Origin: a virus
Virus record (IMG/VR): IMGVR_UViG_3300045988_150172
Strand: one strand, 5' to 3'
Length of the DNA stretch: 64,000 nt
Both the position numbers and the translations under genes were made by a program. Position 1 is the stretch's first letter. Every line of letters begins with the position of its first letter. The notes beneath the pieces are model-generated. The model was not told where the DNA came from and ran no database searches. It saw only the letters and a list, made by a program, of their open reading frames with translations. This document shows positions 3,397 to 61,550 of the stretch, piece after piece.

Positions 3397-3582
3397 ATGA
3401 TTAATGAGGAATTCGATAAAGAGGTACGGATAACAGGTAGGGTGACTGAAGGAACACTTCCAGCAGAGGATTCCATCATTGTTGTTCATTTAGGTTTGCG
3501 TGAACCGTTTATTCCTATGGGGGATACTGAACCTATGCTTGATTTGAATGATATGGCCTATGGAGTTATGAAAGATAGTTAA
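3397..3582 (+). CDS. small hypothetical protein
   Basis: 61-aa ORF downstream of the terminator. No motif. Confidence 0.35.
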   Translation: MINEEFDKEVRITGRVTEGTLPAEDSIIVVHLGLREPFIPMGDTEPMLDLNDMAYGVMKDS

Positions 3583-3616
3583 TACTATAATATATTGAAA
3601 ATTAATATTTAAGGTT

Positions 3617-3832
3617 ATGGCATATAAATCTAAGTTTACAGGAGCTGAAATTGATGAAGCTATAGAGCAGGTTAGAAAGTGGCAGGCTAATCCAGAGACA
3701 ATTCTGTCTGGTGAGCAGATTATGGCACAACTGACAGGTCAGCAAATTATTGATAAGATTAATTCTGTTTCAGGTTCTATTGTATTTACGAAATTCGTTG
3801 ATGCACAGGCTGGGGCAGGCAATACGAAATAG
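3617..3832 (+). CDS. small hypothetical protein
   Basis: 71-aa ORF in the same orientation, tightly spaced before the next ORF. Confidence 0.45.
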   Translation: MAYKSKFTGAEIDEAIEQVRKWQANPETILSGEQIMAQLTGQQIIDKINSVSGSIVFTKFVDAQAGAGNTK

Positions 3833-3835
3833 TGT

Positions 3836-4135
3836 ATGGCAGAATTTAGAATGTTTGCGACTGCCCAACAGGCTGCTGATATTGGCGGTATTACTCCAGC
3901 GGATATTGGTGTAGCTTCAACGGCATTTGTTCGCAAGAGTGAGCTTATAGCGACAGGTAAGTTTGATAATGACAAGATTGTAGAAGAGAATGTCTATAAT
4001 TTTGTTCATCTTGATAATATATACCCGAAAGCTTCTTCTGGGTTCACCGTAGAACCTACAGAATTGAATTTTATCGGAGATGGTTCTTCTAAGGATATTG
4101 TTATTCGTACAGAGGAAAGCTGGGTAATTGAATAG
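3836..4135 (+). CDS. small structural protein ending in a BACON-like half module
   Basis: 99-aa ORF. The C-terminus LNFIGDGSSKDIVIRTEESWVIE* closely parallels LNFAGNGSSLDLTIESNGSWDIG* at the end of the next gene. Confidence 0.5.
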   Translation: MAEFRMFATAQQAADIGGITPADIGVASTAFVRKSELIATGKFDNDKIVEENVYNFVHLDNIYPKASSGFTVEPTELNFIGDGSSKDIVIRTEESWVIE

Positions 4136-4145
4136 GAGGTTTGTG

Positions 4146-7211: not shown

Positions 7212-7229
7212 TTAAAATGAAAGAATATT

Positions 7230-7718
7230 ATGGCTAAAGGGAAAGTTTTTACAGCTCCAAAGGCATTTATTAAGATAGATAATCAGGTTGCTGGATATGT
7301 CCGCAACCTGACATTCTCAGAGAATGTTCAAAGGGCTAACGTTCAAGGTCTTGGAAGTCTTACCTATCAGGAAGCTCCACCAGTGGTTTATACCTGTAAT
7401 TGGCAAGTGGATCAATATTTTATTTCTTTTGATACACCTGTAATGAAAAAGATGCTGAAGAAGTTTGGTTCCATTGCAGCAATTAAAAACAGTCTTGTGC
7501 TAGGTGATGTTTCATTTGACATTACCGTTTATGCTAAAGCAGTCAAGTCGGAAGACAGTCAGTCAGGGCTGGTTACTGAAGTTGATAACACAGGAGAAAC
7601 AATAGCACGTCTTCAGGGCTGTCTATTGAATTCACAGTCATTTCAGATGTCTGAAGCGGGAATTGCAGGCGTAAATATTCAGGGTATCTATCTGGAGCCT
7701 ATTTCAATGGCAAAGTAG
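7230..7718 (+). CDS. tail tube protein
   Basis: 162 aa. Called from its size and its position between the sheath and chaperone genes. Confidence 0.6.
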   Translation: MAKGKVFTAPKAFIKIDNQVAGYVRNLTFSENVQRANVQGLGSLTYQEAPPVVYTCNWQVDQYFISFDTPVMKKMLKKFGSIAAIKNSLVLGDVSFDITVYAKAVKSEDSQSGLVTEVDNTGETIARLQGCLLNSQSFQMSEAGIAGVNIQGIYLEPISMAK

Positions 7719-7741
7719 AATTTATAAATAAAAGATGATAT

Positions 7742-8104
7742 ATGTTACAGGAAGAAGTAAAATTTGTTGTAAAGGGTCATGAATATACAATTAAGTACCC
7801 TACTGTTGGGCAGTATTATAACATTGAAGCCTTAAAACAGTCATTGGGTCGAGGTAATTATAATATGATGCTTCAAAGTCCTCTTCGCAGTGTTCAGGAT
7901 GCACTTGATATGATTGACATTGAAGCTACCCTTACAATAATGTGCCCCGATTTGATTAAGGATTTGAAAGTACCAATTACGGAGCTGGATGTTCGTGATT
8001 TTGTGGCTGTTAAGGATGCTTATATAAAGCAGGTTGCACCATTTTTCAAGTCTATCAATGATGCTTTGCATGGGGATGCTGGTATTTCTGAAAATGTAGG
8101 ATGA
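7742..8104 (+). CDS. tail assembly chaperone (putative)
   Basis: 120-aa ORF in the canonical slot between the tube and tape measure genes. Confidence 0.5.
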   Translation: MLQEEVKFVVKGHEYTIKYPTVGQYYNIEALKQSLGRGNYNMMLQSPLRSVQDALDMIDIEATLTIMCPDLIKDLKVPITELDVRDFVAVKDAYIKQVAPFFKSINDALHGDAGISENVG

Positions 8105-8105
8105 T

Positions 8106-8417
8106 ATGAAGAGTTCCGAACTGGAACAGGCAGTTGTCAGTTGGAATAATAGATTCCCTCTGGATAGGTGGTGGCGTAATAAGCATGAAGTCGCATTTAT
8201 GTCCCCTGTTCATAGGGAATCCTCTTTTCTATATCAACTGTTTGAATTTGAAGAGGAAAAACTGTTTTCCAAGGTTGTTGAAACAGGTTCTTTCAATGAA
8301 GCAGAATATATTCCTGGAAGTGGTGATATATTTAGAACACCTGCAACAATGGAGGATTTTACAAAGGAAGCGCAGAGAGAGATTTGTGAAATGTTAAAGA
8401 TGGAAGAAAATGGCTGA
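8106..8417 (+). CDS. second tail assembly chaperone-like protein
   Basis: 103-aa acidic ORF with its own ATG one nt after the preceding stop. Overlaps the tape measure start. Confidence 0.45.
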   Translation: MKSSELEQAVVSWNNRFPLDRWWRNKHEVAFMSPVHRESSFLYQLFEFEEEKLFSKVVETGSFNEAEYIPGSGDIFRTPATMEDFTKEAQREICEMLKMEENG

Positions 8418-10503
8418 TAAACAGATTAGAGTCACGACGGATACTTCTGCTATAGAGCGATTTAAGGTGGAAGCAGATGAACTGTATAGAAATCTTAGAA
8501 AGTATTCCAAGGATTATCTTACGGCATCAGAGAGTGATATAGACGCTATCGTACAGAGACATGAAAAGTTACTTAATCTTTACCGTGAACTTGATATTGC
8601 GAATAGTTCTAGGGCTGGTGATAGAGCTTTTCAGCGACTTGATTATCAGTTTACAGAGAACAACATAAATCGTAATAGGTATCAAGAGCAACATCCACAG
8701 GTGGATCCGGATTCTAATTCAAGAAAAACAATTCTTGAGCAGATTAGGGACACATTGAACAAGATGTTTAACAAGGATCAGACTGTTGGTGGCCGTTCAT
8801 TACGCCCAGAAGATGATACAGATCCATTTAGAAGAATGAGTAATCCTGCTGGGGGTGGGGGTGCTGTAAGGTCTGATGTTCAAGGGGGTTTACAGGCTAT
8901 TGCATCAGGAGATATTATTGGTGGGTTTGGCAAATTGCTTGGTCTTGCTGGGGTTGGTGCTATCGGTGCAGGGCTTGCTAAAGCATTTCAGGAGGCATAT
9001 CAAACACAGACTTCAGTTTATGGTGCTGGTTCTTCTATTGAGAGGGAATTAGATCGATTAAATGTATGGAGATATGTTCCATTTAGTGCTAGGGGTAGGA
9101 ATGTTGATACAGCTAGATACAATTTGGAAGCCTATTGGAATAACAGAGGGTCACAATATCAGATGGCTCTTATGTCTGGTGTGGGTATAGACTCTGCGTT
9201 TAATCAACAGATTGCTGGTTCTAGTGTAAGTGGTAGTGTAAATGATCCAAAGTATAGCAGAGCTTTGTCACAGGCCATTAAAACGGCTGGGGCTTTTGGT
9301 GCTGGTGGTGCTGGAATCGGTACAGCCTTTAATCCAGGAATCGGTACAGCTATTGGTGGAGGTATTGGTGCTTTTGCAGGATTTTTGACAGGTGCTGGAG
9401 TAGGTGCTTGGAATGAGTACATGAATAATAAGATTCCAGAACTGGAAGTGCATAATAGGGGGTCAGTTGTGCTTGGAAAGAATATTTCTGAAATGACATC
9501 TGATCTCTATGATTATAGACGTGCAGCAGTTACAGCAGAAAATGCAGATGCCAATTCTATCTGGCAGAGTATGCTTGCTGAAAAGATATATGGTCTTGAC
9601 AGGGGGGCTTTGACAGGTGTCTATGGTGTCAATAGATATCAGAATGGTGCTTTGCGTGCTGATAGGGTGGCTTCTGATGTGCTGGCTACACTAAAGACTC
9701 AGACATTTGATCCTTTTGAACGTTCCATTCGATTGCAGGAAGGATTGAATACATATACTCAAGTTGCTAATTCCATTATAGGGCAGACAGGTTCATTTGA
9801 TTCCAATACAGTAAAGAATATTATTCAGGGGTTGACGGCTAGGGGTGTTCAAGGGCAGAACTTAACTTCCTTGGCTCAGGCTTTTGCAGGTAATACGATG
9901 TCTAGTGGTGATGTATCGAGAGCACTGATTATGCAGGCAGCTGCAATGTCTGGAAATGGTGGCTCGTTACTTGACTTACAGGCAGAACTTGAACACCCTG
10001 AAAGAGGGACAATGAAGACATTGTTAGGTAATCTTTGGAATATGTCAGGTGGGAATAAGGATTTCTTTGAAACCACACTGGCTTCCACTCTTGGAATCAG
10101 TGCTTCCAAATTGCGTACAGCCAAGAGGGATGCGGCTAGAAAGGGTAGAAATTTTCTGTATGATAAGAATGGTAATCTGGATATAGATTCTATTTATGAT
10201 AGTGGGTTACTTGGGCAGGATTTTTTGGAGAGTGATGCTGCATCCATGGTAACGGATCAGGAACGAAGCGAAGCTGGAACAGCCAATAGAAATATAGTTG
10301 GTGGTAAACTTGCACAGGATGCTTACCAACGTGGTGATGAGGACTGGTTTAAGTCGTTTAAGAATATAGATGAGAATTTGGGTGCGTTGCTTGATAAGGC
10401 CAATGGGGAAGGGATTAATGTTAATATGGTGAATGTTGCACCAAAGGCTGTGCAGGGTGGTAAGACTTCTGTGGTTATTAAAAATAGTGCTCAAAAACAT
10501 TAA
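8410..10503 (+). CDS. tail tape measure protein
   Basis: 697 aa. Coiled-coil N-terminus and Gly/Ala-rich hydrophobic segments (GGFGKLLGLAGVGAIGAGLA, GAGGAGIGTAFNPGIGTAIGGGIGAFAGFLTGAGVGA). Position is after the chaperones. Confidence 0.75.
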   Translation: MADKQIRVTTDTSAIERFKVEADELYRNLRKYSKDYLTASESDIDAIVQRHEKLLNLYRELDIANSSRAGDRAFQRLDYQFTENNINRNRYQEQHPQVDPDSNSRKTILEQIRDTLNKMFNKDQTVGGRSLRPEDDTDPFRRMSNPAGGGGAVRSDVQGGLQAIASGDIIGGFGKLLGLAGVGAIGAGLAKAFQEAYQTQTSVYGAGSSIERELDRLNVWRYVPFSARGRNVDTARYNLEAYWNNRGSQYQMALMSGVGIDSAFNQQIAGSSVSGSVNDPKYSRALSQAIKTAGAFGAGGAGIGTAFNPGIGTAIGGGIGAFAGFLTGAGVGAWNEYMNNKIPELEVHNRGSVVLGKNISEMTSDLYDYRRAAVTAENADANSIWQSMLAEKIYGLDRGALTGVYGVNRYQNGALRADRVASDVLATLKTQTFDPFERSIRLQEGLNTYTQVANSIIGQTGSFDSNTVKNIIQGLTARGVQGQNLTSLAQAFAGNTMSSGDVSRALIMQAAAMSGNGGSLLDLQAELEHPERGTMKTLLGNLWNMSGGNKDFFETTLASTLGISASKLRTAKRDAARKGRNFLYDKNGNLDIDSIYDSGLLGQDFLESDAASMVTDQERSEAGTANRNIVGGKLAQDAYQRGDEDWFKSFKNIDENLGALLDKANGEGINVNMVNVAPKAVQGGKTSVVIKNSAQKH

Positions 10504-10515
10504 TTATGATCTATT

Positions 10516-13236
10516 ATGGGGGATATTAGTAAGAATTATTCTTTTAGTGAATTTGTGCGTTCTGAAACAGCAGCTAGAGAGGGGTGGGACAACACTATTC
10601 CTGAACAGTATAAGGCTAATATTATTCGCCTATGTACGTCTGTTTTACAGCCTATAAATGATGCAACAGGGTGGACTAATATAATTTCATCGGGGTATCG
10701 TTCAAGTCGGCTAAATAAGGCTGTTGGCGGTGTGAATAATTCTTTACATTTAACAGGTTGTGCCGCAGACTGTAATTTCTACAGGAAGACAAATGGAATC
10801 AATGTAAGGGTTTCGCCTGTTGACGTGGAAAAGAAAGTTAAGGAATTAGGTCTTCCATATACGGAATTGATTCAATACAATGAAAAAGGCTTTGTTCACA
10901 TTGGATATAATGGTGTTTCGAAACGTCTTGTGAAGCCGGAGGATCCATTGGATGGGGCTGATATACAGACAGTTTATCCTCAGGATACTGCTTCTGAATC
11001 ATATAGCGTATATGTTATACAGAGAGCAGATGGTGCTGATGAAAATGGTGTTATTACCATTGATGGGTTTAACACCGTGTTAAAGAATCTTGGGTTTATG
11101 TTTGACGGTGACGGTAATGTAAATGAGAAATGGTTGGAATTTACAGACGGCAATCAAACAAACCTGGATCGTATAGTTGAGATGTATTCTCCAACGGAAA
11201 AAGTGAAGTATAAGGATGAGATTAATAACGGTAAGATTCCTTTTGTAAAGGTTGGTACGCGTCTGTTGATAAAATCTTCAGTGCTGGATGCTTATAAGGT
11301 AAGATTTGAGAATTCTAATGTGTTTGAAGTTCCAGGAAAGACGGCTGTGATGTATTGGAATGACAACGTAAAAAGAATTACGAGTGACCCCTTGTATCAA
11401 TCCACATGGAAAAACCCTCTTGGTAGTGTTGTCGTTCAGCAAAAGACTGTAAGCGTCAAGGCATGGGTCTATAGTAGAGCCTTTAAGGGTTTTGTTGATA
11501 TTTCCCCCTACATTATTTCGGCCAGCACTAACAAGAGTGGATTCAATGGTTCATTTTCAATTCAGGTAAACCCTGTGGCAGTTAGTAAGATTGCTGGTGG
11601 GTTTAATTATAATGAAGTGAATCAATACAATACGGACAAGGAATTGAGGTGGGTAGATAATGGTGATGATTCTGACTATGCTAAAGGACATGCCAAGACG
11701 CTGGACTGGTTTGGCGTATTTATGCAGCAGAATGATATGGTGTGGCTACGGTTTGAAGAACTTCAATGTGAAAAGAACCAAGATGCTTCGGAAAGCAAAT
11801 CCCTGATTAAGTCAGATTCTGATTTAACGGATTCTCTTATATGGGATATGATTGGTTTTGTGGATAGTGTTACGAGTAGTGCTAATTATGATGGCAATTC
11901 TTATTCCATAGCCATAGAGGGTCGAGATTTTTCAAAATTGTTTGAAGATGACGGTATAAGCTTTATCCCATTCAATGCGATATTTGGTTCGGCGCATAAC
12001 ATGACATTGATGGGTAATGATGAGAGCCCATTTCTTCGCAGGAATATGGACGGTATGATTGCCTTTGGCATGTATTTTCAGTCGATAAAATCAAGTCTTG
12101 GCTTTATTTTTGAAAAATGCTCTCAGATAGAAGTTATGCCGTCAACTATTTTTAATAGTTGCAACAGGTATGATAATGATTCTACATTTACTCCTAAAGG
12201 TGCTTGGAAGTTGTTTAAGATATGGTGTGATAGTCAGCTGGACAGTAGGATTTTTTATAATAACATCTTGGTGAATCCCGATGGAAGTATTGCCGATTTC
12301 ATACGTTCAACATGTAAGGAGCCATTTGTGGAGGTGCTGGGTGACACTTGGGGTGCTGGGTATGACTTGATGGTACGTAAACCACCATTTGATAAGTCTT
12401 CCATACAGACAATGCTGTATGCAAAGAATAATGACAGTGCGTCTGTTGAGTCATATATTGACATTATGGATGAAGATCTGTACGACTTTAATCTGTCGTT
12501 TGACAATAGGGTGTATTCTTGGTATAAGATTGTTCCTGCTGATGGTCTGATTCCAGGGCTTGATTCCAAGACTTCAACCATTTTGATTCCTATATTCTAT
12601 TTGGATGAGTATGTTCGTGTGTTTGGAAATAAGCGATGCATCATTCAAGATCCTTATGTTCTCTCGGCTTATCTTGGTGGAAATAAGTCGAAGGAGAAGA
12701 CTGGTTCCTTGTTCACCACTTTGGCGGCTGATTATATTTTTGCGATAGAGAGTACCGCCTATTTACCTTTTACCAGAAGAGGGCAGATAACTATTAATGG
12801 AGATAGGAGAATAAAGGTTGGAACATTTGTTCGTCTTGCAGCTACAAATGAAATCTTTTATGTTGTTGGCGTTAATCAGAGTGTTTCATTTGGAGAATCT
12901 AATGTGGATAGGCGTACAGTTCTTACGGTTGAACGAGGTATGGTTGTGGACTATATTACAAATGAGAGGTATAATTATTTTAACATTGTAAATATAGATG
13001 GGTTGAAGGATACATTGGAAAATAATCTTACGTCTGGTAAAGCTAACATGGAATTGAACACTACGCTAACACGTAATGGTGAAGTGTTTTATTTCTTTCT
13101 AAACAGATGGCAGTTTGTTAAGCGAGCATATCGGGCTGTAACAATGACATTTGACATCAATGATGCTGCTGTGTATGATAGTGATACGGCAGGGGAGTTT
13201 AATATGACAAAAGTGATAAGTTCTAAGGAGAGTTAA
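10516..13236 (+). CDS. tail hub/baseplate protein with N-terminal M15-type peptidoglycan peptidase domain
   Basis: 906 aa. SGYRSSRLNKAVGGVNNSLHLTGCAADC .. GFVHIGY matches the SxHxxGxAxD ... H signature of VanY/M15 zinc peptidases. Confidence 0.7.
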   Translation: MGDISKNYSFSEFVRSETAAREGWDNTIPEQYKANIIRLCTSVLQPINDATGWTNIISSGYRSSRLNKAVGGVNNSLHLTGCAADCNFYRKTNGINVRVSPVDVEKKVKELGLPYTELIQYNEKGFVHIGYNGVSKRLVKPEDPLDGADIQTVYPQDTASESYSVYVIQRADGADENGVITIDGFNTVLKNLGFMFDGDGNVNEKWLEFTDGNQTNLDRIVEMYSPTEKVKYKDEINNGKIPFVKVGTRLLIKSSVLDAYKVRFENSNVFEVPGKTAVMYWNDNVKRITSDPLYQSTWKNPLGSVVVQQKTVSVKAWVYSRAFKGFVDISPYIISASTNKSGFNGSFSIQVNPVAVSKIAGGFNYNEVNQYNTDKELRWVDNGDDSDYAKGHAKTLDWFGVFMQQNDMVWLRFEELQCEKNQDASESKSLIKSDSDLTDSLIWDMIGFVDSVTSSANYDGNSYSIAIEGRDFSKLFEDDGISFIPFNAIFGSAHNMTLMGNDESPFLRRNMDGMIAFGMYFQSIKSSLGFIFEKCSQIEVMPSTIFNSCNRYDNDSTFTPKGAWKLFKIWCDSQLDSRIFYNNILVNPDGSIADFIRSTCKEPFVEVLGDTWGAGYDLMVRKPPFDKSSIQTMLYAKNNDSASVESYIDIMDEDLYDFNLSFDNRVYSWYKIVPADGLIPGLDSKTSTILIPIFYLDEYVRVFGNKRCIIQDPYVLSAYLGGNKSKEKTGSLFTTLAADYIFAIESTAYLPFTRRGQITINGDRRIKVGTFVRLAATNEIFYVVGVNQSVSFGESNVDRRTVLTVERGMVVDYITNERYNYFNIVNIDGLKDTLENNLTSGKANMELNTTLTRNGEVFYFFLNRWQFVKRAYRAVTMTFDINDAAVYDSDTAGEFNMTKVISSKES

Positions 13237-14616: not shown

Positions 14617-14622
14617 ATTAAT

Positions 14623-14630
14623 TATATTTG
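14623..14630 (+). promoter_or_regulatory. Bacteroidota-type -7 promoter box TATATTTG
   Basis: TATATTTGCG lies in the 39-nt gap before the 14656 ORF. The same octamer+CG recurs at 51686 and 53314. Confidence 0.45.
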
Positions 14631-14655
14631 CGTAAAAAGATAAATGGAGTAGATC

Positions 14656-25091: not shown

Positions 25092-28000
25092 ATGATTCAG
25101 TTCAATGAAAATAATAAACTTTCTTTTCGGCAGCTGGATAGCATTATAGATACAGCAATAAGAATCATTCAGGATCTTCCTATAAAGGCAGTAAACCAGT
25201 TGATGGAAGCTTATAAGGGGGATCAGGATGCTATGTTGTCAGAAATATTTAGGCAGACGGAAAATGTCTTGAAATTGAACACCACATTAGAGACAGAACG
25301 CCTTTCCTATGTGGATCAGCTAACAGAAAGTATGGATGATTCCCTAAAGATAATGTCCTATAATTATTTTAAGACAACCATGCTTCCTAACTTTAGACAG
25401 GGGTGGAGGAATCTCGAGTGGGGGAATATGATACAGCTTTACCCAAACAGTGGCTATCTTGCCGCACGTTCTCACGGTAAATGTTTTTTGGCTGGTACAC
25501 ATATTCTTATGGCTGACTGGACTGTAAAGAATGTGGAAGACATCTATCCAGGGATGGAGGTAATGGGTATGGACTTCACACCAAGGAAAGTTCTTACTCG
25601 ACACATTGGTGCAGCTCAGATGTTTACAGTACATCAGGAGAATGGTGTTTCCTATACTGTGAACAGGTTTCACATTCTCTGTTTATGGGACACTAAAAGG
25701 AAGCATTATGTTGAAATTCCAATTGGTAATTTTCTAAAATATCCACAGGAAAAACAGAATAGATTTAGAGGGTACAGAGTGTTTTCAAGTGCCAAGCCAA
25801 TATTGGAATATTCACCAATAACAGTTGAGCCGTATGGTTATGGCTCCTATTATGGATTTGCCTGTGATGGTGATCACAAGTTTCTTCTGGAGGATAATAC
25901 TGTGGTGCATAATTCCTATGAATTTTGCATGGCGTTTCCCCTCTGGAGAATGTATTCTTATCGTAGGCCTAATTTTATGAAGCCTGACATACCGGATAAT
26001 ACCAATAGAAAAGAAACATGTATCATAACAAATACGGAAACTCTAGGTAAGGAGCATCTTGATAAGGTTAAGGAGGAGATTCATTCAAATGAAGCTCTTA
26101 CGGCTGTTCTTAATCCAAATGGTAAGGCTTCTCTTGGTGCTACTGGTTTTGAATGCGAAAATGGAACCAAATTGCATCTTAGAGGAAAGGATGGGTTTAT
26201 TCGAGGTCTTCACGTTGGGGCTGCTGTGTCTGATGACTTGCCTGATGAAAGTTCTATTTATTCCCTGGAACAGAGAGAAAAATTGAAGGACTTGTTCAAG
26301 GGTGCGATCACACCTATTGTGGAGCCGTATGGCTATAATATCGTGGATGGCTGTGTTACGCCTGATACACTTGTGTTGACGGCTGATGGCATTAAGGAAA
26401 TTGGGCGGCTTGCGCCTGTTGGTCTTGATTCCGAGCGTGGCTATTATGACTGGAATGGTCAGACATATAATGGTCAGAATCTGGAGGAAGTATCCTCCTA
26501 TTATGTGAATGGGAATACTGAGACCATTCGTGTGATACTTGATAGAGGGCTTGAACTGGAGACAAGCCATGTTCACCCAGTGCTTGTGTGTGATGTGGAT
26601 GGTCGATTTGTGTGGCGCAAATGTGAGGATCTTTCCGTTGGTGATTATGTGGCTGTAAAGATTGGTGCTGATGTATGGGGTAAGCCGTTGAATATTGACA
26701 GAGAGGAACTTTATCAGATGGGAATGTGTGTGGCTGATGGTTGCTTGAGTGGTGAACGAATAACGATAGCCAAAAAGGTTGACGGAATACGAAAGCATTT
26801 TATTGATGAACAGGGCTGGCATCCTGTAAAGGGTACTACTCACGATGATATTCACTTTAGGTGGTATAAGCAGGAGAAACGTGAGCTTTGGCATTCGTTT
26901 GGCTATGAATATGGCCTGTATAGTCACACTAAATATATCCCAGAGAAAGTGCTTTCAGCTTCCAAGGCTGATTTGTGTGCCTTTTTGTCTGGGTATTTTG
27001 ATGGTGATGGCTGTTTAACAAGGAATGATAGAGGTCGCTATCATATTAGCTGTTTTTCAGTGAGCAAGCGGTTAATTCAGCAGATTCAGTTCGTACTTTT
27101 GAATATGGGTATAGTTTCACACGTTACCTATAAGAAGTGTCAATCCACTGAAAAGGTCAAGACGGATAGAATGGGTTATTTATTGCGTATATCTTCACAG
27201 AATATGATTCAGAAGTTTATGCGTGAGATTGGCTTTCCTTATTCAGGCAAGGCAGACAAGTATGTTGATTCAGAAGTTAAGGTGAACAATGTCTGTCAAT
27301 ACGGTGTACCTTATCAGCGTGATTTGTTTAAGAGGATAAGAAAGCAGATTCATTTGACTGATGAAGATAGGAAGCGATTTGGGCTGGAATCATTTAAGAC
27401 ACAGAATAGAACGAAAATATCTATCTATACTGTGGGCGAGATGCAGAAACTGGCTGAGTGGGTTGAAAATTCAGGGTTATGTAATGAGGACACTTCCATC
27501 TTTTTGAGTAACGCAAAATTAGGATATGTTTTCTTGCCTGTGAAGCGGTTGGAACAGGGGCAGAGTGTTACTGTTGATTTTTCAATGCAGGAGACGCACT
27601 CCTTTGTTTCTAATGGAATTATTTCTCACAACACCCCATATTCTGAGAGAGACCTTTATTATGAACTGAAACAGGATCCTAAATTTAAGGTTTTTGAGTA
27701 CCCAGCTATATTTCCTGATGGTAGGCTTCTTGCTCCTGATAGATTTACATTTGATAAGCTAATGGAGGAAAAGAAGTCTGTGGGTACACTGGTGTTCAGC
27801 CGTGAGTATCTTGTTGTTCCTATTTCTGATGATGCCACCATTTTTCCGATGGAAATACTTATGCGAAGCACAATAGGAATGGAGAATGTGCGACTTGTGG
27901 ATAACATTGAGTCATTTCCGTTTAAGTTGTCTAGAGTGGTTGTAGGGTGTGACTTTGCTATATCAGGAAATGTAGGTGCGGATTATACCTGTTACACTGT

Positions 28001-28472
28001 GTGGGGGAAGGACTTGAATGATTCCTATTATCTTTTGTATGTTTATCGGGAACAGGGGCTTTCACACAATGAGCAGATAAATAAGATAGAATATTTGAAT
28101 ACTGTGTTTAAGCCGAATGAAATCGTGGTTGAGAATAACGGTTTTCAGTCTATTCTTGCTGACATGTGTGTTCAAAGGGGTATTAGGAATATTTTTCCGT
28201 TTACCACTACATCTGGAAATAAGAAAGATCTTAGAACAGGGTGGGCATCACTTGCGGCTTTGTTCGAAAGAGGTGACATACGATGCCCATATCATCCTGA
28301 CACACGACAGAAAATAGATACAATGTTTGGAGAATTTACATCCATTGCATTTCGACCTGATAGAGGTACATTGGAATCCATCAGTGGTCATGATGATACA
28401 GTATCATCCTCGTTTATGGCAATAAATAGATTACGTGAATCATCCGTTAGAATAAAGGTTGATTCAGTATAA
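25092..28472 (+). CDS. terminase large subunit interrupted by two inteins
   Basis: Exteins: YLAARSHGK|S P-loop. Nuclease motifs VVVGCDFAISG, VVENNGFQS, GHDDTVSS. The coding sequence stays in frame through both insertions. Confidence 0.85.
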   Translation: MIQFNENNKLSFRQLDSIIDTAIRIIQDLPIKAVNQLMEAYKGDQDAMLSEIFRQTENVLKLNTTLETERLSYVDQLTESMDDSLKIMSYNYFKTTMLPNFRQGWRNLEWGNMIQLYPNSGYLAARSHGKCFLAGTHILMADWTVKNVEDIYPGMEVMGMDFTPRKVLTRHIGAAQMFTVHQENGVSYTVNRFHILCLWDTKRKHYVEIPIGNFLKYPQEKQNRFRGYRVFSSAKPILEYSPITVEPYGYGSYYGFACDGDHKFLLEDNTVVHNSYEFCMAFPLWRMYSYRRPNFMKPDIPDNTNRKETCIITNTETLGKEHLDKVKEEIHSNEALTAVLNPNGKASLGATGFECENGTKLHLRGKDGFIRGLHVGAAVSDDLPDESSIYSLEQREKLKDLFKGAITPIVEPYGYNIVDGCVTPDTLVLTADGIKEIGRLAPVGLDSERGYYDWNGQTYNGQNLEEVSSYYVNGNTETIRVILDRGLELETSHVHPVLVCDVDGRFVWRKCEDLSVGDYVAVKIGADVWGKPLNIDREELYQMGMCVADGCLSGERITIAKKVDGIRKHFIDEQGWHPVKGTTHDDIHFRWYKQEKRELWHSFGYEYGLYSHTKYIPEKVLSASKADLCAFLSGYFDGDGCLTRNDRGRYHISCFSVSKRLIQQIQFVLLNMGIVSHVTYKKCQSTEKVKTDRMGYLLRISSQNMIQKFMREIGFPYSGKADKYVDSEVKVNNVCQYGVPYQRDLFKRIRKQIHLTDEDRKRFGLESFKTQNRTKISIYTVGEMQKLAEWVENSGLCNEDTSIFLSNAKLGYVFLPVKRLEQGQSVTVDFSMQETHSFVSNGIISHNTPYSERDLYYELKQDPKFKVFEYPAIFPDGRLLAPDRFTFDKLMEEKKSVGTLVFSREYLVVPISDDATIFPMEILMRSTIGMENVRLVDNIESFPFKLSRVVVGCDFAISGNVGADYTCYTVWGKDLNDSYYLLYVYREQGLSHNEQINKIEYLNTVFKPNEIVVENNGFQSILADMCVQRGIRNIFPFTTTSGNKKDLRTGWASLAALFERGDIRCPYHPDTRQKIDTMFGEFTSIAFRPDRGTLESISGHDDTVSSSFMAINRLRESSVRIKVDSV
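25482..25913 (+). mobile_element. mini-intein (144 aa, no endonuclease domain) inserted in the terminase Walker A loop
   Basis: Starts CFLAGTHIL, has block B TVNRFH, and ends ..DNTVVHN followed by Ser. Removing it restores GK|S. Confidence 0.8.
26352..27632 (+). mobile_element. full-length intein (427 aa) with LAGLIDADG homing endonuclease, in the terminase
   Basis: Starts CVTPDTLVLTADG, has block B ETSHVHP, LAGLIDADG motifs MGMCVADGC and LSGYFDGDGC, and ends NGIISHN|T. Confidence 0.85.
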
Positions 28473-32014: not shown

Positions 32015-32033
32015 GAAAAAATCTAGAATTATT

Positions 32034-32065
32034 CTAGGATTTCAAAAGAAAAGTGGTTATATTTG
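32034..32065 (+). promoter_or_regulatory. Bacteroidota-type promoter (-33-like CTAG.. / -7 TATATTTG)
   Basis: ctaggatttcaaaagaaaagtggtTATATTTG. A 20-nt spacer. Aligns with the promoters at 42475, 51663 and 53291. Confidence 0.55.
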
Positions 32066-32089
32066 TAGTCATAAATTTATTAAATAAAA

Positions 32090-42455: not shown

Positions 42456-42474
42456 AGAAATTCCTGATAAACTC

Positions 42475-42505
42475 CTTGGATATCCAAGAAAAATAATTAC
42501 CTTTG
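42475..42505 (+). promoter_or_regulatory. Bacteroidota-type promoter with a perfect 14-bp palindrome over the -33 element
   Basis: CTTGGATATCCAAG (42475..42488) is its own reverse complement. TACCTTTG at 42498..42505 follows a 19-nt spacer. Confidence 0.6.
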
Positions 42506-42532
42506 CCGTGTAATCATTAAATCAATAAAGTT

Positions 42533-49670: not shown

Positions 49671-49685
49671 TTGATATATAATAAC

Positions 49686-49693
49686 TACATTTG
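49686..49693 (+). promoter_or_regulatory. -7 promoter box TACATTTG
   Basis: Lies in the 53-nt gap before 49724. No convincing -33 element. Confidence 0.35.
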
Positions 49694-49723
49694 TGTTGTA
49701 TATTGTTTAATGTTTTTTGAAAA

Positions 49724-50343: not shown

Positions 50344-51414
50344 ATGAGTCTTTTTGAATTTATAGCTAAATCACGTTCAGGTGTCTATAAGGATACTTCA
50401 GAAAATCGTAGACTTCATCGTGTAGGCCAGCGTTATGGTGCAATTCAACAGATTGTTGATGAGGGGGAACTTGTTCCTGGAATGCCTAATTCGACAAAGG
50501 TGAATCTGAAGAAGTACCTTTCAGGTAAGATGAAGCACCAAGTAGATGCATATATTAATGCACTAAAGGTTACTCCTGCTTGGAATGATATTGAGAAGCT
50601 TCGTGCTGTGACTAAAGCTTATCAGGATATGTTTAATGGCAGTTTTGATTCCTTGTCTAAAAGCAATAGAGCTCTTTTTGTTGAAATTGTTAAAAGACTT
50701 CAGAATAGAATTGCTGAACTTGGTGATGCGAAGAAACCTGATAATGCTGTTGTTACGACAAATGTGGGCACAAAATCTAAATTTGAACAGGCGGCTGAAA
50801 AGGCTGGTTTTGAACGTGGTGAGCCGATGTCTATTGATTTGGCTGATGATAAACATGCCAATCCTAAATATATGAAATCAGTTGATGGAAGTTTTCGTCC
50901 ATATACTTGTAATTGTCAGACATGCGTTGTTGCCTATGAACTTAGACGTAGAGGTTATGATGTAGAAGCAATGGGTGCTGGTGTTCAAAAGGGTTTTATT
51001 AATGAATATCAACACTCACTTGCACTTGATAGCACAAATGCCTTTTTGGGAATATCATTTAAGCGTTCTACATTAAATTGGAATAATTCAATTAAGAGTA
51101 ATACACCTAAAGGTCGTCGTGAGTATGTTGCTAATCTGTTTGATGCAACAAAAGAAGAGGGTCGGTATTTCCTTTCCATGAAAAATAGAAGAAGATCTAC
51201 TGGACACATTGTTGTAGTGGAATCCACTGAGGATGGTGGAAAACTTTTAGTTGATCCTCAATCTGGGGAAAGGATTAATCTTACTGATGGTGCTGCCGTT
51301 GATAAATACTTTTCTAGAGTAGATGTTAAGCATCTCTATAATAAAGTATTTAGGGTTGATAATCTGGAATTTAATCCTGCCGTGTTTACCGTTGTAACTA
51401 AAAATTCTGAATAA
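50344..51414 (+). CDS. leader-bearing cargo protein A1 with Cys/His papain-fold-like C-terminal domain
   Basis: The N-terminus MSLFEFIAKSRSGVYKDTSENRRLHRVGQRYG is shared with 51712. The C-terminal CNCQTCVVAYELRRRGYDVEA ... STGHIVVVE resembles, from memory, toxin-type domains found at the ends of MuF/gp7 head proteins. Confidence 0.55.
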   Translation: MSLFEFIAKSRSGVYKDTSENRRLHRVGQRYGAIQQIVDEGELVPGMPNSTKVNLKKYLSGKMKHQVDAYINALKVTPAWNDIEKLRAVTKAYQDMFNGSFDSLSKSNRALFVEIVKRLQNRIAELGDAKKPDNAVVTTNVGTKSKFEQAAEKAGFERGEPMSIDLADDKHANPKYMKSVDGSFRPYTCNCQTCVVAYELRRRGYDVEAMGAGVQKGFINEYQHSLALDSTNAFLGISFKRSTLNWNNSIKSNTPKGRREYVANLFDATKEEGRYFLSMKNRRRSTGHIVVVESTEDGGKLLVDPQSGERINLTDGAAVDKYFSRVDVKHLYNKVFRVDNLEFNPAVFTVVTKNSE

Positions 51415-51416
51415 AA

Positions 51417-51653
51417 ATGATTGCTGAAAAGGACATATTGAAGATCTGTGAAGCAGCAGGTTGGAAAGGTGGAGAACTTCTTTATGGAGGTTTTGCCGAT
51501 GGAAAGTATTACGTATCCTATGGTGGTAAGAGTGAGGATGGTGTTATTCTGCTAGTGGGAGATCCTATAATTCTCATTGTAGAAAATGGTGTGTGTAGGG
51601 TTGCTACTGATAGTGAAAGGGTTTATTTTTATGAAAATTTCGTGAAAGATTAA
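51417..51653 (+). CDS. small protein B1 (paralog of frameshifted 52688..52925)
   Basis: 78 aa: DILKICEAAGW..LLYGGFADGKYYVSYG..PIILIVENGVCRVATDSERVYFYENFVKD. Confidence 0.55.
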   Translation: MIAEKDILKICEAAGWKGGELLYGGFADGKYYVSYGGKSEDGVILLVGDPIILIVENGVCRVATDSERVYFYENFVKD

Positions 51654-51662
51654 GGAATAATC

Positions 51663-51693
51663 CTTGGATATTTCAGAAAAGTGATTATATTTG
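51663..51693 (+). promoter_or_regulatory. Bacteroidota-type promoter (CTTG -33 / TATATTTG -7, 19-nt spacer)
   Basis: cttggatatttcagaaaagtgatTATATTTGcg. Aligns with the 42475 promoter. Confidence 0.6.
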
Positions 51694-51711
51694 CGTTATA
51701 AAATTTAGGCT

Positions 51712-52440
51712 ATGGGCTTGTTTGAATACATAATTAAAGCTAAATCTGGTGTTTATAAGGATAATCCAGAGAATAGACGACTGCATAGGGCTGGATTACA
51801 ATATGGTCAGAAAAAGCAGCAGGAAAGCGTTCCTGATGTAAACAAGGAGGATTTTGAACTTGCGGAAGCAAAGGTCGAGAAAATGCTTGCCGTGAAACAG
51901 AACTTTGATAATGTTTCACAGGCTGTGTGTATGGAGGTTGGTTGTATTGTCTCCCCTACCAACATTAAAAAGCCCATAAGGATTGCTCAGAAAATGGCTT
52001 CTGATAATTCTACTATTGATGATATTAAGGATGTTATGCGTAACACCTTTGTTGTTAATAGTGACGCTGATGTTGGCAAGGTTATAGAAGTCATATCCAA
52101 GCATTATAAAGTCGTTAGAGTAAAGCGTCAAATGCCTGACAAGTTCGCTGGTTATAGTGGCAATATTGTCAATGTGGAGCTTCCTAATGGTGAAATTGGT
52201 GAAATGCAGGTGAACACGCCACAAATGATATTTGGTAAGGAGGTTGAACGTGATGCTAGAATGATTCTGGGTGATAGTCTATGGGAACGATTAAAGGCCA
52301 ATGCAGGAAACCTTATCCCTGGACTTGGTCATAGGATGTATGAGGTGCTTCGGGATGATTCCATTGACGATGAAAGACTTGATATTGTTGAACGCAATAG
52401 TAGAATTTATTATGATAGAATTAGAAAGATTTCGCTATGA
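51712..52440 (+). CDS. leader-bearing cargo protein A2 with divergent RelA/SpoT-like nucleotidyltransferase domain
   Basis: The N-terminus MGLFEYIIKAKSGVYKDNPENRRLHRAGLQYG matches A1 at about 22 of 32 residues. IKDVMRNTFVV.. / GYSGNIVNVELPNGEIGEMQVNT parallels D.aG.RiiV / GYrSlHl.v....vEiQiRT. Confidence 0.5.
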   Translation: MGLFEYIIKAKSGVYKDNPENRRLHRAGLQYGQKKQQESVPDVNKEDFELAEAKVEKMLAVKQNFDNVSQAVCMEVGCIVSPTNIKKPIRIAQKMASDNSTIDDIKDVMRNTFVVNSDADVGKVIEVISKHYKVVRVKRQMPDKFAGYSGNIVNVELPNGEIGEMQVNTPQMIFGKEVERDARMILGDSLWERLKANAGNLIPGLGHRMYEVLRDDSIDDERLDIVERNSRIYYDRIRKISL

Positions 52441-52685
52441 GAACAGTAACTAACAAGGAACTGGGGGAGTTGCTCCGTTCCAATGAAATGGTCTATCTAT
52501 TAGACGACACCGATGAAATTGCATGGGGGTTTCTTGGTGAAGGAAAGAACCGTAGAAGAGTGGTAAGCAAGGCAAAGGGAAGAGAGCCTTTCGAGCACAA
52601 CCCAAAGCAGCAGAACTCCAACAGTATGATCCGTGCCTATATGAATAAGGATGTGATGACAAAGGAGGAATTTGAAAATTACTGA
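52437..52685 (+). CDS. small hypothetical protein ATGA-coupled to A2
   Basis: 82-aa ORF. Confidence 0.45.
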   Translation: MRTVTNKELGELLRSNEMVYLLDDTDEIAWGFLGEGKNRRRVVSKAKGREPFEHNPKQQNSNSMIRAYMNKDVMTKEEFENY

Positions 52686-52687
52686 AT

Positions 52688-52925
52688 ATGTGTGAGCGAA
52701 AGAATGACATATTAAAGGTCTGTCAATCGGCAGGTTATACAGAGGGAAACCTCATCTATGGTGGTTTTTGTCAATGGGAAACATTATGTGTCCTACGGGC
52801 AGGATGATGCGGAGGAACTCCAATGTGTAGGTGCTCCTGTCATTCTGATAGTAGAGAACGGTCTATGCAGAATTGCCACTGATGATGAACGAAATTACTT
52901 TTATAGATTTCTTGTGAAAGATTAA
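52688..52925 (+). pseudogene. B2, paralog of 51417..51653 disrupted by a +1 shift in a T5 run
   Basis: Frame 1 gives MCERKNDILKVCQSAGYTEGNLIYGGF. After skipping one T of ttttt (52765..52769) the reading is VNGKHYVSYG..PVILIVENGLCRIATDDERNYFYRFLVKD*. The total is 78 aa, the same as B1. Confidence 0.6.
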
Positions 52926-52968
52926 GGATGGTTATTGTATATGCGTTTCTGACAGAGTTAAAGACTAT

Positions 52969-53268
52969 ATGGAAATGAAAAATGATTTCGCGAAGTCCAT
53001 TCTTGACAACCCTTATAACAGGGTTGAGGGTGGCCAGAAGATTGAATTGTTCAATGTTCTGTCCAAGTACAGGTATCAGCGTCAGAATAGGCAGTTGACC
53101 ACCTATGTTGCGTATGCCGAGGATCTTGGAATAACCAAGGAGGAAGCTGTGGCTTACCAGAATTGGATAAACGACGGCAATCCGACAGGCATTGAGTCCG
53201 ATGAGCAGTTTTATGAGATTCAGAAACAGGTATATGGCAAGGTTGTTATAAAATTGTCGTGGCTTTAA
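52969..53268 (+). CDS. hypothetical protein
   Basis: 99-aa ORF. No motif. Confidence 0.4.
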   Translation: MEMKNDFAKSILDNPYNRVEGGQKIELFNVLSKYRYQRQNRQLTTYVAYAEDLGITKEEAVAYQNWINDGNPTGIESDEQFYEIQKQVYGKVVIKLSWL

Positions 53269-53290
53269 TTGATTTTTCATGGGTTATTCT

Positions 53291-53321
53291 TTTGGAAATT
53301 CAAGAACAACGACTATATTTG
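53291..53321 (+). promoter_or_regulatory. Bacteroidota-type promoter (TTTG -33 / TATATTTG -7, 19-nt spacer)
   Basis: tttggaaattcaagaacaacgacTATATTTGcg. Confidence 0.6.
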
Positions 53322-53333
53322 CGTTGTAAAATT

Positions 53334-53352
53334 AAAAATGATTTTGTTATGA
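53334..53352 (+). promoter_or_regulatory. leader cassette AAAAATGATTTTGTTATGA (mini-ORF MILL* overlapping the start codon)
   Basis: Mini-ORF at 53338..53352. The gene's ATG is at 53349. Confidence 0.6.
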
Positions 53353-53798
53353 ACATGGTTGTTAAATCTAAAGATCAGTTTCGTCTGGCTACTGAAATCG
53401 CAGTTCAGGCACACAATGGGCAGGTTGATAAGAATGGAGTTCCGTATATCTGTCATCCTATTGCTGTTGCTAATAAATGTTCACTTCCAATAGCCAAGTG
53501 TATTGCTATGCTTCATGATGTGCTGGAAGATACAAAAGTTACAGCAACAGATTTGATTGGTATGGGTGTTGACCCATATATTGTTGAATGTGTGGGGAAG
53601 CTGACACACAGAAAAGGCACTCCATATTTGGACTATATTCAAAGTATAATTGATACAGGAATCTATAACGTTATCAGGGTGAAGTACGCTGACTTATGTG
53701 ACAATCTTGATCCTGCGAGGGGTGGTTTGAACGAGCGGAAGATGCCTTTGTATCTTAAGGCTAAAAGAATGTTGGAGGAAGCGTTATGTCGTGTATAG
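53349..53798 (+). CDS. HD-domain small alarmone hydrolase-like protein (SpoT/Mesh1 hydrolase fold)
   Basis: AVQAHNGQVDKNGVPYICHPIAVA ... AMLHDVLEDT ... VKYADLCDNL match H.GQ.rk.g.PYi.HP / LHDv.EDT / k.aDr..N. Confidence 0.7.
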   Translation: MNMVVKSKDQFRLATEIAVQAHNGQVDKNGVPYICHPIAVANKCSLPIAKCIAMLHDVLEDTKVTATDLIGMGVDPYIVECVGKLTHRKGTPYLDYIQSIIDTGIYNVIRVKYADLCDNLDPARGGLNERKMPLYLKAKRMLEEALCRV

Positions 53799-59921: not shown

Positions 59922-61550
59922 ATGAATACAAAGATTTTGTTTGGAAAGGACGCTAGAGGTGCACTTCTAGCTGGAGCTGAAGAACTTTATTCAGCAGTAG
60001 CATCCACCCTCGGACCGCGAGGTCATACGGTTGCGATTGACAAGGGGTATGGAATTCCACACATCACGAAGGACGGTGTGACGGTTGCTCGTGCCTATGA
60101 CACTGATGATCCTATGAAACGAATGGGCGCGACACTTGTGAAGATGGTGGCTGCGAAGACATGTGATCAAGCAGGTGATGGAACAACTACGGCTACGATT
60201 CTGTCCTATGCTATGATGAAGCGTGGTGTGTCTGGATCTGTAAATATTCAAAACCCACACGAATATCGTAGGGGCATGGAGGATGCTAGGGATGAAGCCA
60301 TCAACTATATCAAGGGGTGTGCTGTAAAGATTGCCCCTGATGAGATTGATAGAATTAGACAGGTGGCTAGGATATCTGCCAATGGGGATGATATGGTTGC
60401 AGACCTCATAACGTCAGCAATTGACAGTGTTGGCAATGACGGTATCATTACCGTGGAGGAAAGTCCTAAAGGTGATGAATCTACCGTTGAAGTTACAACT
60501 GGCTTCCAATGGAGTAAGGGGATTATAAATCCATATTTTGTTACCGACAGTGAGCGAATGGAGTGTGTTCTGGATAAGCCGTATGTTCTTATCTGGGGTC
60601 AGAACATCAATTATGTTCAGGAGATTCTTGCTGTGGTGCAGACTGTATATACAGCCAAGAGATCCCTTTTGATTGTGGCTCCAAATGCCTCCAATGACGT
60701 GATAAAGTTTCTCGTCACAAACGTTCAGCAAAACAACGGTCTAAAGGCATGTTTTGTAAAGGCTCCAGGATTCGGTCAGATGCAGAAGGACTTGATGCAG
60801 GACTTGGCTGTAAAGGTGGGCGGCAAAATTGTTGGTGAGGAATACGGTAACGCCATTGAGTCATTTGGAACTGACTGGCTTGGTGAAGTGGACAAGGCCA
60901 CAATTTCAGCAAACAGAACAGTTCTTGTCGGTGGTGCTGGTAGGACAGGTGATATAGAAGCAAGAATAGAATTCATTAAGAATGAAATGGCTGAAAATTT
61001 CAACACCTATGACAGAGAGAAGTATAGAGAGCGTATTAGCCGTCTTACAGGTGGTGCTGCCGTCATCTATGTTGGGGCTGATTCTGAAGTTGAGTTGAAG
61101 GAGCGCAAGGATAGAGTTGATGATGCTATTGCAGCCACTAGAGCAGCACTTGATGAGGGGTATGTTCCTGGAGGGGGAACGATTCAATACAAGTTGGCAA
61201 AGTTTTTGGACGGATCCCTGAAGAGCAACCCTAGCTGGAACCCTGACTATGTGGAGGGCTACCGTGCTGTAATTGATGCCCTGATGGAACATTTTAACAC
61301 ATTGTGCTTGAATGCAGGTGTTGAACCGATAAGAATTGAGGTGTTAATGGATTTAAGATCCAAGGAGTTACAGTATGGATATAATCCATTTAAGAATAAG
61401 GTTGAGGACATGTATAAGGCTGGTATCATAGACCCTGCAAAGGTAACAAGAGCATCTCTTGAAAATGCTGTTTCCGTGGCCGTTCAATTTCTTGGCATGT
61501 CGTGTGCCATGTCAGCGGATGAAAGTACAATAACCAACAATAAACCATAA
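59922..61550 (+). CDS. groL: GroEL-type chaperonin
   Basis: FGKDARGALLAGAEELYSAVASTLGPRGHTVAIDK..ITKDGVTVAR..AGDGTTTATIL is collinear with bacterial GroEL. 542 aa. Confidence 0.9.
   Translation: MNTKILFGKDARGALLAGAEELYSAVASTLGPRGHTVAIDKGYGIPHITKDGVTVARAYDTDDPMKRMGATLVKMVAAKTCDQAGDGTTTATILSYAMMKRGVSGSVNIQNPHEYRRGMEDARDEAINYIKGCAVKIAPDEIDRIRQVARISANGDDMVADLITSAIDSVGNDGIITVEESPKGDESTVEVTTGFQWSKGIINPYFVTDSERMECVLDKPYVLIWGQNINYVQEILAVVQTVYTAKRSLLIVAPNASNDVIKFLVTNVQQNNGLKACFVKAPGFGQMQKDLMQDLAVKVGGKIVGEEYGNAIESFGTDWLGEVDKATISANRTVLVGGAGRTGDIEARIEFIKNEMAENFNTYDREKYRERISRLTGGAAVIYVGADSEVELKERKDRVDDAIAATRAALDEGYVPGGGTIQYKLAKFLDGSLKSNPSWNPDYVEGYRAVIDALMEHFNTLCLNAGVEPIRIEVLMDLRSKELQYGYNPFKNKVEDMYKAGIIDPAKVTRASLENAVSVAVQFLGMSCAMSADESTITNNKP

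Follow-up and report, generated by a model that had tools for sequence, protein, structure and literature searches.

Here we describe a polymorphic effector slot in a 64,000-nucleotide stretch of viral DNA (IMG/VR record IMGVR_UViG_3300045988_150172; the whole stretch is referred to below as the window), in which two genes, A1 and A2, encode proteins with unrelated enzymatic domains behind a common N-terminal leader of 32 amino acids (aa). Judged by homology, the enzyme domain of A1 is a papain-fold toxin domain and that of A2 a (p)ppApp synthetase toxin domain. The A2 gene is a chimera whose crossover lies inside the leader itself, and the leader motif is a hallmark of two conserved genes located directly upstream of the portal, MuF-like and prohead-protease genes of the phage head module. 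Our preferred reading, to which we give an even chance of being correct, is that the slot holds two toxin/antidote cassettes, and that the leader is a tag which replaces the MuF domain of known phage toxins and recruits the enzymes to the head for delivery. The new element is this short, undescribed and very widespread tag, the toxin modules themselves being known from MuF systems.

Two cassettes and their common leader

The open reading frames (ORFs) of the slot, in the order A1, B1, A2, an 82-aa ORF (ORF82) and B2, lie exactly where a first-pass annotation, made by a model from the DNA letters, had placed them. The nearly identical start of A1 and A2 that it had reported is equally real: 22 of the first 32 residues are identical, after which the proteins diverge. 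The two can be aligned only over residues 1-36 (23 of 36 identical, pairwise E = 5e-13), with nothing further significant. Nine of the 22 identical residues are encoded by different codons (for example CGT versus AGA/AGG), nucleotide identity over the first 32 codons is 64/96, and the DNA upstream of A1 is dissimilar to that upstream of A2; conservation therefore acts on the peptide and does not reflect a recent DNA duplication. The same synonymous divergence and unrelated upstream DNA, together with the lack of an Rfam hit, exclude both such a duplication and a nucleic-acid element as the explanation of the leader.

A hidden Markov model (HMM) of the motif, run against all six frames of the window, retrieved only the A1 and A2 copies (E = 5e-19 and 1e-17, respectively; next best match, E = 3). 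Pairwise alignment, this HMM and the codon comparison delimit the A1 copy at 50344..50439 (MSLFEFIAKSRSGVYKDTSENRRLHRVGQRYG), on the + strand like all features of the window described here. The leader has a consensus of about xLxExIxK[SA]RSGvYkDtpENRrLhRVGqxYG and is built as a short helix (hxxhxK[SA]RSG) followed by vYkD[TN]pENR[RK]LxRVGxxYG. In the AlphaFold2 (AF2) model of A1, residues 10-30 reach a predicted local distance difference test score (pLDDT) of ~75 between disordered stretches on both sides; the motif may resemble the GIY-YIG beta-hairpin. Comparison of the motif profile with PDB sequences gave chance-level matches, with no homology to RHIM, HET-s or BASS, and Pfam holds no family for the leader, for the mid module of A1, for B1, for ORF82 or for the 99-aa tail protein described below. 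A full-text literature search with motif strings returned nothing relevant, and no such motif appears in the paper on polyvalent proteins (PMC5512222).

A1 (50344..51414, 356 aa) consists of the leader, an adaptor module that we call 'mid', and a C-terminal enzyme domain (50779..51411), in which the first-pass annotation had recognised a Cys/His papain-like fold. That assignment proved sound, since the protein matches Pfam PF15644, Gln_amidase ("papain fold toxin 1, glutamine deamidase"), at 46.1 bits (cut-off 24.1; E = 1.2e-11), the Cys-His-Asp residues C191, H288 and D304 are invariant in 43 homologues (218 homologues of A1 were found), and the predicted fold is papain-like. Foldseek comparison of the AF2 model (pLDDT 82.8) with the PDB retrieved papain-like toxins, Josephin-type clippases and a CdiA-CT toxin; a profile search of A1 against PDB sequences gave no hit. 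By homology, A1 thus carries an enzyme domain of the papain-fold glutamine-deamidase family, with deamidase or protease activity predicted. Against the BFVD, the model matched deamidase domains joined either to minor capsid proteins or to proteins described as "capsid maturation protease and MuF-like", and the A1 cargo domain is elsewhere fused to PF04233 (MuF), PF06152 (minor capsid) and PF14550 domains and to prohead-protease/MuF fusions. A Pfam scan found no MuF domain on either A1 or A2, as the first-pass annotation had also noted.

Between the leader and the enzyme of A1 lies a second conserved module that went beyond the earlier description. This mid module (aa ~42-131, 50467..50736; PNSxKVNLKKYLSxK...FNxxFDxxxKxxRA) is modelled by AF2 as a helical bundle with a pLDDT of 83-94, and phmmer finds it in ~50 of the 150 top-scoring motif proteins described below, usually in a C-terminal position, as well as at loci L009, L010, L022 and L041 (L numbers designate the loci compared in this work). 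In its predicted architecture A1 is, in effect, a leader-plus-mid protein to which a toxin was added, and A2 has the leader only.

Directly after A1 lies B1 (51417..51653), a 78-aa small alpha/beta protein according to its AF2 model (pLDDT 77.6), which has no significant match among PDB folds. Its gene always follows A1-type genes in the window lineage (synteny in L001-L005, L026 and L032), making B1 a candidate inhibitor, that is, a cognate immunity protein, of A1. The B family is very small: a search of 5.8 billion proteins gave 6 clusters and none beyond the window lineage, and no B homologues were found beside MuF-deamidase genes, including that of Bacteroides phage p00. B2 (52688..52925) is indeed a frameshifted paralogue of B1, as had been proposed: the two are 58% identical over 53 aa (E = 2e-20), and alignment to B1 places the +1 frameshift of B2 at one extra T in the run at 52765-52769. 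Elsewhere, B2-like genes occur intact (P0270, P0271).

A2 (51712..52440, 242 aa) joins the leader to a domain previously described as a RelA/SpoT-like nucleotidyltransferase core, a description that its resemblance to Tas1 upholds. Tas1 is a (p)ppApp synthetase toxin of a type VI secretion system (T6SS). A profile built from five A2-type proteins matches it (PDB 6OX6) with E = 1.8e-29 over aa 60-239, with 180 aligned residues; the score of A2 against Pfam RelA_SpoT, 25 bits, is below the cut-off of 27. On this homology A2 is assigned a Tas1/Apk-like (p)ppApp synthetase toxin domain, whose activity and toxicity are predicted. ORF82 (52437..52685), which overlaps the A2 stop codon (ATGA), travels with A2: it accompanies A2 in L004 and L026 and, weakly, in L006-8, is absent where a Zeta toxin replaces A2, and is also found at L112 beside an HD-domain gene. 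It matches nothing in Pfam or the PDB, with no detectable similarity to known immunity proteins, and its distribution makes it a candidate A2-specific inhibitor.

Further downstream, at 53349..53798, is a gene for a 149-aa HD-domain small alarmone hydrolase (SAH; phrog_990), which most likely starts at the ATG at 53349, giving the same length as in its homologues. Its best PDB match by phmmer is 7SMG, '(p)ppApp hydrolase' (E = 8.9e-21), and RelA/SpoT hydrolase domains match far more weakly; by this comparison the protein is Aph1-like, with a predicted preference for (p)ppApp. The first-pass annotation had named the SAH gene among those to be combined with A1 and A2 in toxicity assays. It is kept in all relatives, with or without A2, and is for that reason excluded as a private antitoxin of A2.

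Exchange of cargo in the slot

In relatives of the window phage the slot runs from the gene of a 205-aa membrane protein to the HD and ligase genes, and its content is polymorphic. L002 and L003 contain A1-B1 only; L004 contains A1-B1-A2-ORF82, as does L026 with a frameshifted A2; L001, L005 and L032 contain A1-B1 followed by the leader fused to a Zeta toxin (417-419 aa); and L006-8, without A1, have the order HD-A2'-ORF76. Ahead of the second cargo position is an intergenic region (51654..51711) with a promoter-like box of Bacteroidota type (TTGGATATTTCAGAAAAGTGATTATATTTG), which is near-identical in L001, L004 and L005 whatever cargo follows.

A four-way DNA alignment places a recombination junction inside the A2 leader, at about codons 20-25 (51770..51785). 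To the left of it, through the upstream region and approximately the first 22 codons, the window DNA matches the L001 Zeta-toxin gene at ~100% identity; to the right, from inside the leader onwards, the window A2 tracks the A2 of L004. The window A2 gene is thus chimeric, with its crossover inside the leader. Identity to L001 resumes at ~52955, which is why a 99-aa ORF of the window (52969..53268) matches the C-terminal tail of the L001 leader::Zeta-toxin protein (aa 321-419) at 98% identity. The body of the Zeta toxin has been replaced, and the 99-aa ORF is a remnant or free-standing version left by the cassette replacement.

The tail ORF is free-standing both in the window and at L112, where it may be an independent domain, an antidote or a dead remnant. 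L112 is a 9.2-kb contig (Logan SRR19415671_81196) with a block at 3411-5064 in which genes for an HD protein, an ORF82 homologue (91% identical), an unbroken B protein and a 100-aa tail protein occur without a toxin gene; the block has 82.6% DNA identity to window positions 52434-53275. It is adjoined by an 88-nt copy of window positions 1-88 and, on the other strand, by a tyrosine integrase of Bacteroidota type. The block could be an antidote-only island in a host element, part of another phage, or an assembly chimera; if it were a host antidote island, it would support both the immunity roles proposed here and delivery of the toxins into cells.

That the toxin/immunity cassettes arose by domain swapping is well supported, because the cargo is of the kind found on MuF toxins, the slot is polymorphic and the crossover falls inside the A2 leader. 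The first-pass annotation had offered duplication with domain swapping as an alternative to a leader that acts in capsid targeting. Both alternatives prove partly right, and they do not exclude each other.

Distribution of the motif and its genome setting

A scan of IMG/VR with a degenerate pattern yielded 25 leader loci and then 79 more, and when 1.84 billion cluster representatives were searched exhaustively with a profile, 778 of them contained the motif at a threshold of E<=1e-3. Copy positions were examined in the top 150 profile hits plus 8 proteins, short and mostly truncated ORFs, from an earlier search with the 44-aa leader: a single N-terminal copy is present in 79, copies at internal positions (frequently two) in ~45, and arrays in 20. 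The motif sits in charged, low-complexity linkers, both internally and in multiple copies. Recognised cargo comprises Gln_amidase, Tas1-like/RelA_SpoT, Zeta_toxin, NUDIX, Kinase-PolyVal and ADPrib_exo_Tox (ADP-ribosyltransferase, ART) domains and LRV/HEAT repeats; about 100 of 116 sampled motif proteins have no Pfam domain at all. The expectation that the leader would be found on other cargo proteins of related phages was therefore borne out across many domain types. Only 2 of 185,579 species genomes contain the motif, both on phage-like contigs of metagenome-assembled genomes, which places it in phages that seldom occur as prophages.

Cultured phages of Bacteroides thetaiotaomicron, SJC03 and DAC16-23, carry the motif as well. 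In SJC03 (L028, MT074146.1, 8938-13377) the neighbouring genes SJC03_69, _72, _77 and _78 share a longer leader that ends in the motif; one of the four is Zeta-toxin-like and one is apparently truncated.

At 52 of 79 IMG/VR loci the motif genes have portal, MuF-like or prohead-protease genes no more than 7 kb away. Eight of the others are the replication-module slot seen in the window, and 19 are short contigs or other contexts. The window lineage has a second motif locus of its own, L041 (contig IMGVR_UViG_3300045988_160295), located by coordinate arithmetic ~10 kb upstream of the window start. Its genes encode, in order, a 657-aa protein (an ~85-aa N-domain plus two copies of the motif), a 199-aa protein running from leader to mid module, a 229-aa protein, the portal (PF04860, E = 2e-17), a MuF-like minor head protein (6304-7251; phrog_115, E = 1.4e-8; PF04233 weak, E = 1.3e-3), a NUDIX protein (7241-8587) and the prohead protease (phrog_1028, E = 5e-39). 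L009, L010, L022, L024, L016/L018 and the Sulfuricurvum-binned L031 show the same kind of order or have a motif gene adjacent to portal or MuF-like genes. NUDIX proteins recur in the head module, without the motif at L041 and with two copies of it at L016 (3769-6381) and L018.

The window comes from a large myovirus of ~100 kb, of virulent type, that belongs to gut Bacteroidota. It encodes a tail sheath, a baseplate protein, a large terminase, a DnaB-like helicase and a DNA polymerase; RecA and an NAD-dependent DNA ligase were assigned through Pfam families on the products of relatives, and an RuvC-like resolvase through a PHROG match of a window ORF. The cassettes lie between RuvC-like/SbcC-like genes and the ligase gene, in a replication/repair module. 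By one baseplate protein, the closest cultured relatives are Chryseobacterium phage MA9V-3 and the B. thetaiotaomicron phages SJC03 and DAC16-23; metagenomic relatives of 99-107 kb have the locus in common at 80-99% protein identity, and a near-identity DNA search of the locus against GenBank phages gave no match. Every long ORF is on the + strand over the whole 64 kb, with a GC content of ~40%, and GC skew is strong, uniform and positive across positions 1-64000 (+0.16 to +0.32 per 2 kb).

Promoter-like boxes of Bacteroidota type (TAnnTTTG) recur at ~32025-32070, ~42470-42510, 51680-51700 and 53290-53325, and these four, ahead of the ORFs at 32090 and 42533, A2 and the HD gene (53349), share the upstream element TTGGAnATTTCAnGAAAA. 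Further boxes are located at 2600-2625, 14620-14640 and 49680-49700; scans for promoters of Escherichia coli type and for terminators were uninformative. Among other genes of the window, the large terminase ORF (25092-28472) is 1126 aa long, with a terminase match only over ~aa 408-1120 and an N-terminal part that matches other PHROG families, and may represent a fusion or an insertion. The 542-aa ORF at 59922-61550 has as its counterpart in the close relative L032 a Cpn60/GroEL-family chaperonin (PF00118), that is, a phage-encoded chaperonin. A 906-aa tail-region protein (10516-13236) has an endolysin-like domain at its N-terminus (phrog_894) and is a probable virion-associated lysin.

What the tag may do

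In the mechanism that we propose, the slot would hold two cassettes, A1 with B1, and A2 with ORF82, the latter backed by the resident Aph1-like (p)ppApp hydrolase. The tag (a short helix followed by G-x-Y-x-D-x-x-x-N-R-x-L-x-R-V-G-x-x-Y-G) and the mid module would have been borrowed from the conserved head-module proteins. The tag would dock its bearer to a partner in the assembling head, which might be the portal, the MuF-like protein, the capsid interior or the two-motif protein beside the portal acting as an adaptor, and the packaged enzymes would then reach the next host together with the DNA. Antidote action by the hydrolase and by the small proteins encoded downstream would either protect the producing cell from the toxins or inactivate them after takeover, and the tag would double as a patch of homology through which phages exchange cargo genes. 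Loading into the virion is a plausible role for the tag, given its gene neighbourhood and by analogy of domain architecture. The first-pass annotation had suggested a capsid-targeting or processing signal; targeting has gained contextual support from the 52 of 79 loci, from L041 and from the occurrence of the A1 domain on MuF and capsid carriers, and the processing part has found none in the form of a cleavage site.

The closest parallel is with the MuF polymorphic toxins, which combine a MuF head-protein domain with a toxin that varies, the immunity gene lying downstream (Jamet et al. 2017, PMC5576092). In Bacteroidales prophages, ART, glutamine-deamidase and Apk2-like synthetase domains occur on MuF carriers of the Bxa family; a small ORF with a predicted immunity role comes after each of them, and an Aph1-like hydrolase after the Apk2-like synthetase (PMC11699363, section 7); the earlier statement that both domain types of A1 and A2 are known as C-terminal modules of MuF proteins is thus correct. 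Apk2 toxins are countered by one specific binding immunity protein and one interchangeable hydrolase (PMC12226406). The window system resembles these in its conserved N-terminal carrier and variable C-terminal toxins of identical types (deamidase, Tas1/Apk2-like, ART, Zeta-like), in the small ORF after each toxin, in the Aph1-like hydrolase that goes with the synthetase and in the exchange of cargo by recombination. It differs in that its toxins are without MuF, their carrier being the 32-aa motif (with the ~90-aa helical module in A1), and in that the window lineage has a separate MuF-like gene by the portal. Moreover, MuF toxins belong to the head module of temperate phages and prophages, whereas the cassettes described here lie in the replication module of a large phage of virulent type.

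Polyvalent proteins of phages and conjugative elements, with 2-15 effector domains per polypeptide and predicted co-delivery with DNA (Iyer et al. 2017, PMC5512222), have an overlapping repertoire (Kinase-PolyVal, ART, NUDIX, Zeta-like, papain-like peptidases), and some motif proteins are multidomain, such as the NUDIX protein of L016 with its two motif copies. A1 and A2, in contrast, have one enzyme domain each, and the motif is mostly found on separate tagged single-enzyme proteins with no giant polypeptide.

The internal proteins IPI-III and Alt of phage T4 bear a capsid-targeting sequence of ~10 aa that is strictly N-terminal and is removed by the prohead protease. Like that sequence (reviewed in PMC9958956), the window motif is a short N-terminal peptide common to unrelated proteins, which in T4 are head-carried and injected and include host-modifying enzymes; for the window proteins packaging would be the corresponding step. 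The window motif is longer, at ~30 aa, and has no sequence similarity to the T4 peptide. A T4-like L/I-x-E site precedes the motif in many copies (..LIEK, ..ILEK), inconsistently and not in A1 or A2, and was set aside as a cleavage signal. Encapsulin cargo-loading peptides and the N-terminal packaging signals of Photorhabdus virulence cassettes (PVC) and extracellular contractile injection systems (eCIS) are also short, are sometimes repeated in disordered linkers and load diverse enzymes; they load an HK97-fold shell or a contractile particle and are unrelated in sequence, so that the analogy is one of logic only. As for Tas1-Tis1 and the toxSAS/SAH pairs, the A2 catalytic domain is homologous to Tas1 and has an Aph1-type HD hydrolase adjacent to it, but there is no T6SS context and the hydrolase is retained in relatives without A2.

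Several observations weigh against a packaging role. A1 and A2 lie amid replication/repair genes, and the promoter-like boxes of replication-module class ahead of A2 and the HD gene suggest early or middle, not late, expression. No conserved protease or cleavage site was seen after the tag; the internal positions of the motif and its 2-3 copies per protein are unlike the T4 capsid-targeting sequences; and B is not always beside a deamidase gene, coming after ORF82 both in the window and at L112. The SJC03 and DAC16-23 proteins are annotated only as hypothetical. Finally, the core of the motif, Y-x-D-N-x-x-N-R-x-L-G-R-V-G, occurs in animal kinases in arrays of 6-13 copies, placed N-terminal to kinase domains of tyrosine kinase-like (TKL) type and separated by Ser-rich linkers of ~20 aa (P0009, P0011, P0014, P0016). 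The arrays are known from molluscs (Biomphalaria, Plakobranchus and Physella) and a starfish (Acanthaster), the kinases including KAK0061970.1, GFO23876.1, XP_059146664.1 and XP_022104385.1, and the repeat belongs to no Pfam family. Because of these arrays the property of the motif cannot be specific to the phage capsid, and they imply a generic capacity for binding or self-assembly.

It is conceivable that the effectors are made fresh and act, unpackaged, only inside the infected cell, with the tag tethering the enzymes to one conserved machine (nucleoid or DNA, ribosome, chaperone or replisome, for example) that the motif bearers of the head module use in another way. Such tethering would suit the place of A1 and A2 in the replication/repair module with its type of promoter box, the scatter of the motif through charged linkers and the generic partner or property suggested by the animal arrays. 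We nevertheless consider it rather unlikely: two thirds of the motif loci belong to the head module, with portal, MuF-like and protease genes as neighbours, the enzymes found as cargo are those known from MuF-fused and polyvalent proteins, which are thought to be delivered by virions (PMC5512222, PMC5576092), and a toxin together with its own inhibitor in one cell would have no obvious use unless the two were later separated. A further proposal, decidedly less probable in our view, makes the motif its own partner, as a homotypic assembly element (by beta-hairpin or beta-augmentation, possibly amyloid-like) through which the effectors co-assemble with the two-copy N-domain protein into an internal head body; this would be a version of packaging, and the animal kinases would use the same self-association for signalling. 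The family with an ~85-aa N-domain and two motif copies does adjoin single-copy proteins, the metazoan arrays with their ~20-aa spacing would be apt for it, and AF2 is moderately confident of the motif as a small structured element between disordered stretches, but the motif is highly charged (net positive), which is atypical of known amyloid signalling motifs, and the PDB profile search saw no RHIM, HET-s or BASS homology.

Least probable of all, we think, is that the leader does nothing by itself once the protein is mature, being either a 5' segment that, with the promoter, serves for cargo capture by homologous recombination, or a propeptide removed by the prohead protease. Strong amino-acid conservation in the face of synonymous divergence speaks against this, as do retention of the motif across distant phages, at internal positions and in animals, and the lack of a conserved cleavage motif after the tag; the position of the crossover within the leader and the conservation of the promoter region before the second cargo position whatever the cargo would accord with the former, and a prohead protease encoded in the head module with the latter.

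Docking to the assembling head remains our preferred account of the tag, and the idea is directly testable because cultured motif-bearing phages exist (SJC03 and DAC16-23 on B. thetaiotaomicron). A still broader idea, which we put forward as an unlikely one, is that the motif is a universal portable docking or assembly peptide, which would load enzymes into phage capsids without structural fusion and would have been recruited as arrays on animal kinases. If true, it would be a new cross-kingdom module of peptide recognition or co-assembly, and would offer a programmable packaging tag for Bacteroides phage particles; the kinase arrays are otherwise an independent puzzle.

Phage-delivered toxins have so far been recognised mainly through MuF fusion or as giant polyvalent proteins. 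If the tag has a packaging role, many injected effectors of abundant gut phages that have stayed hidden would become identifiable by sequence, the swapping of weapons between phages would be explained by a tag that is also a recombination handle, and a small handle would be available for loading foreign proteins into Bacteroides phages. The A2/ORF82/Aph1-like trio, with its predicted activities, extends (p)ppApp toxin biology to phages of virulent type.

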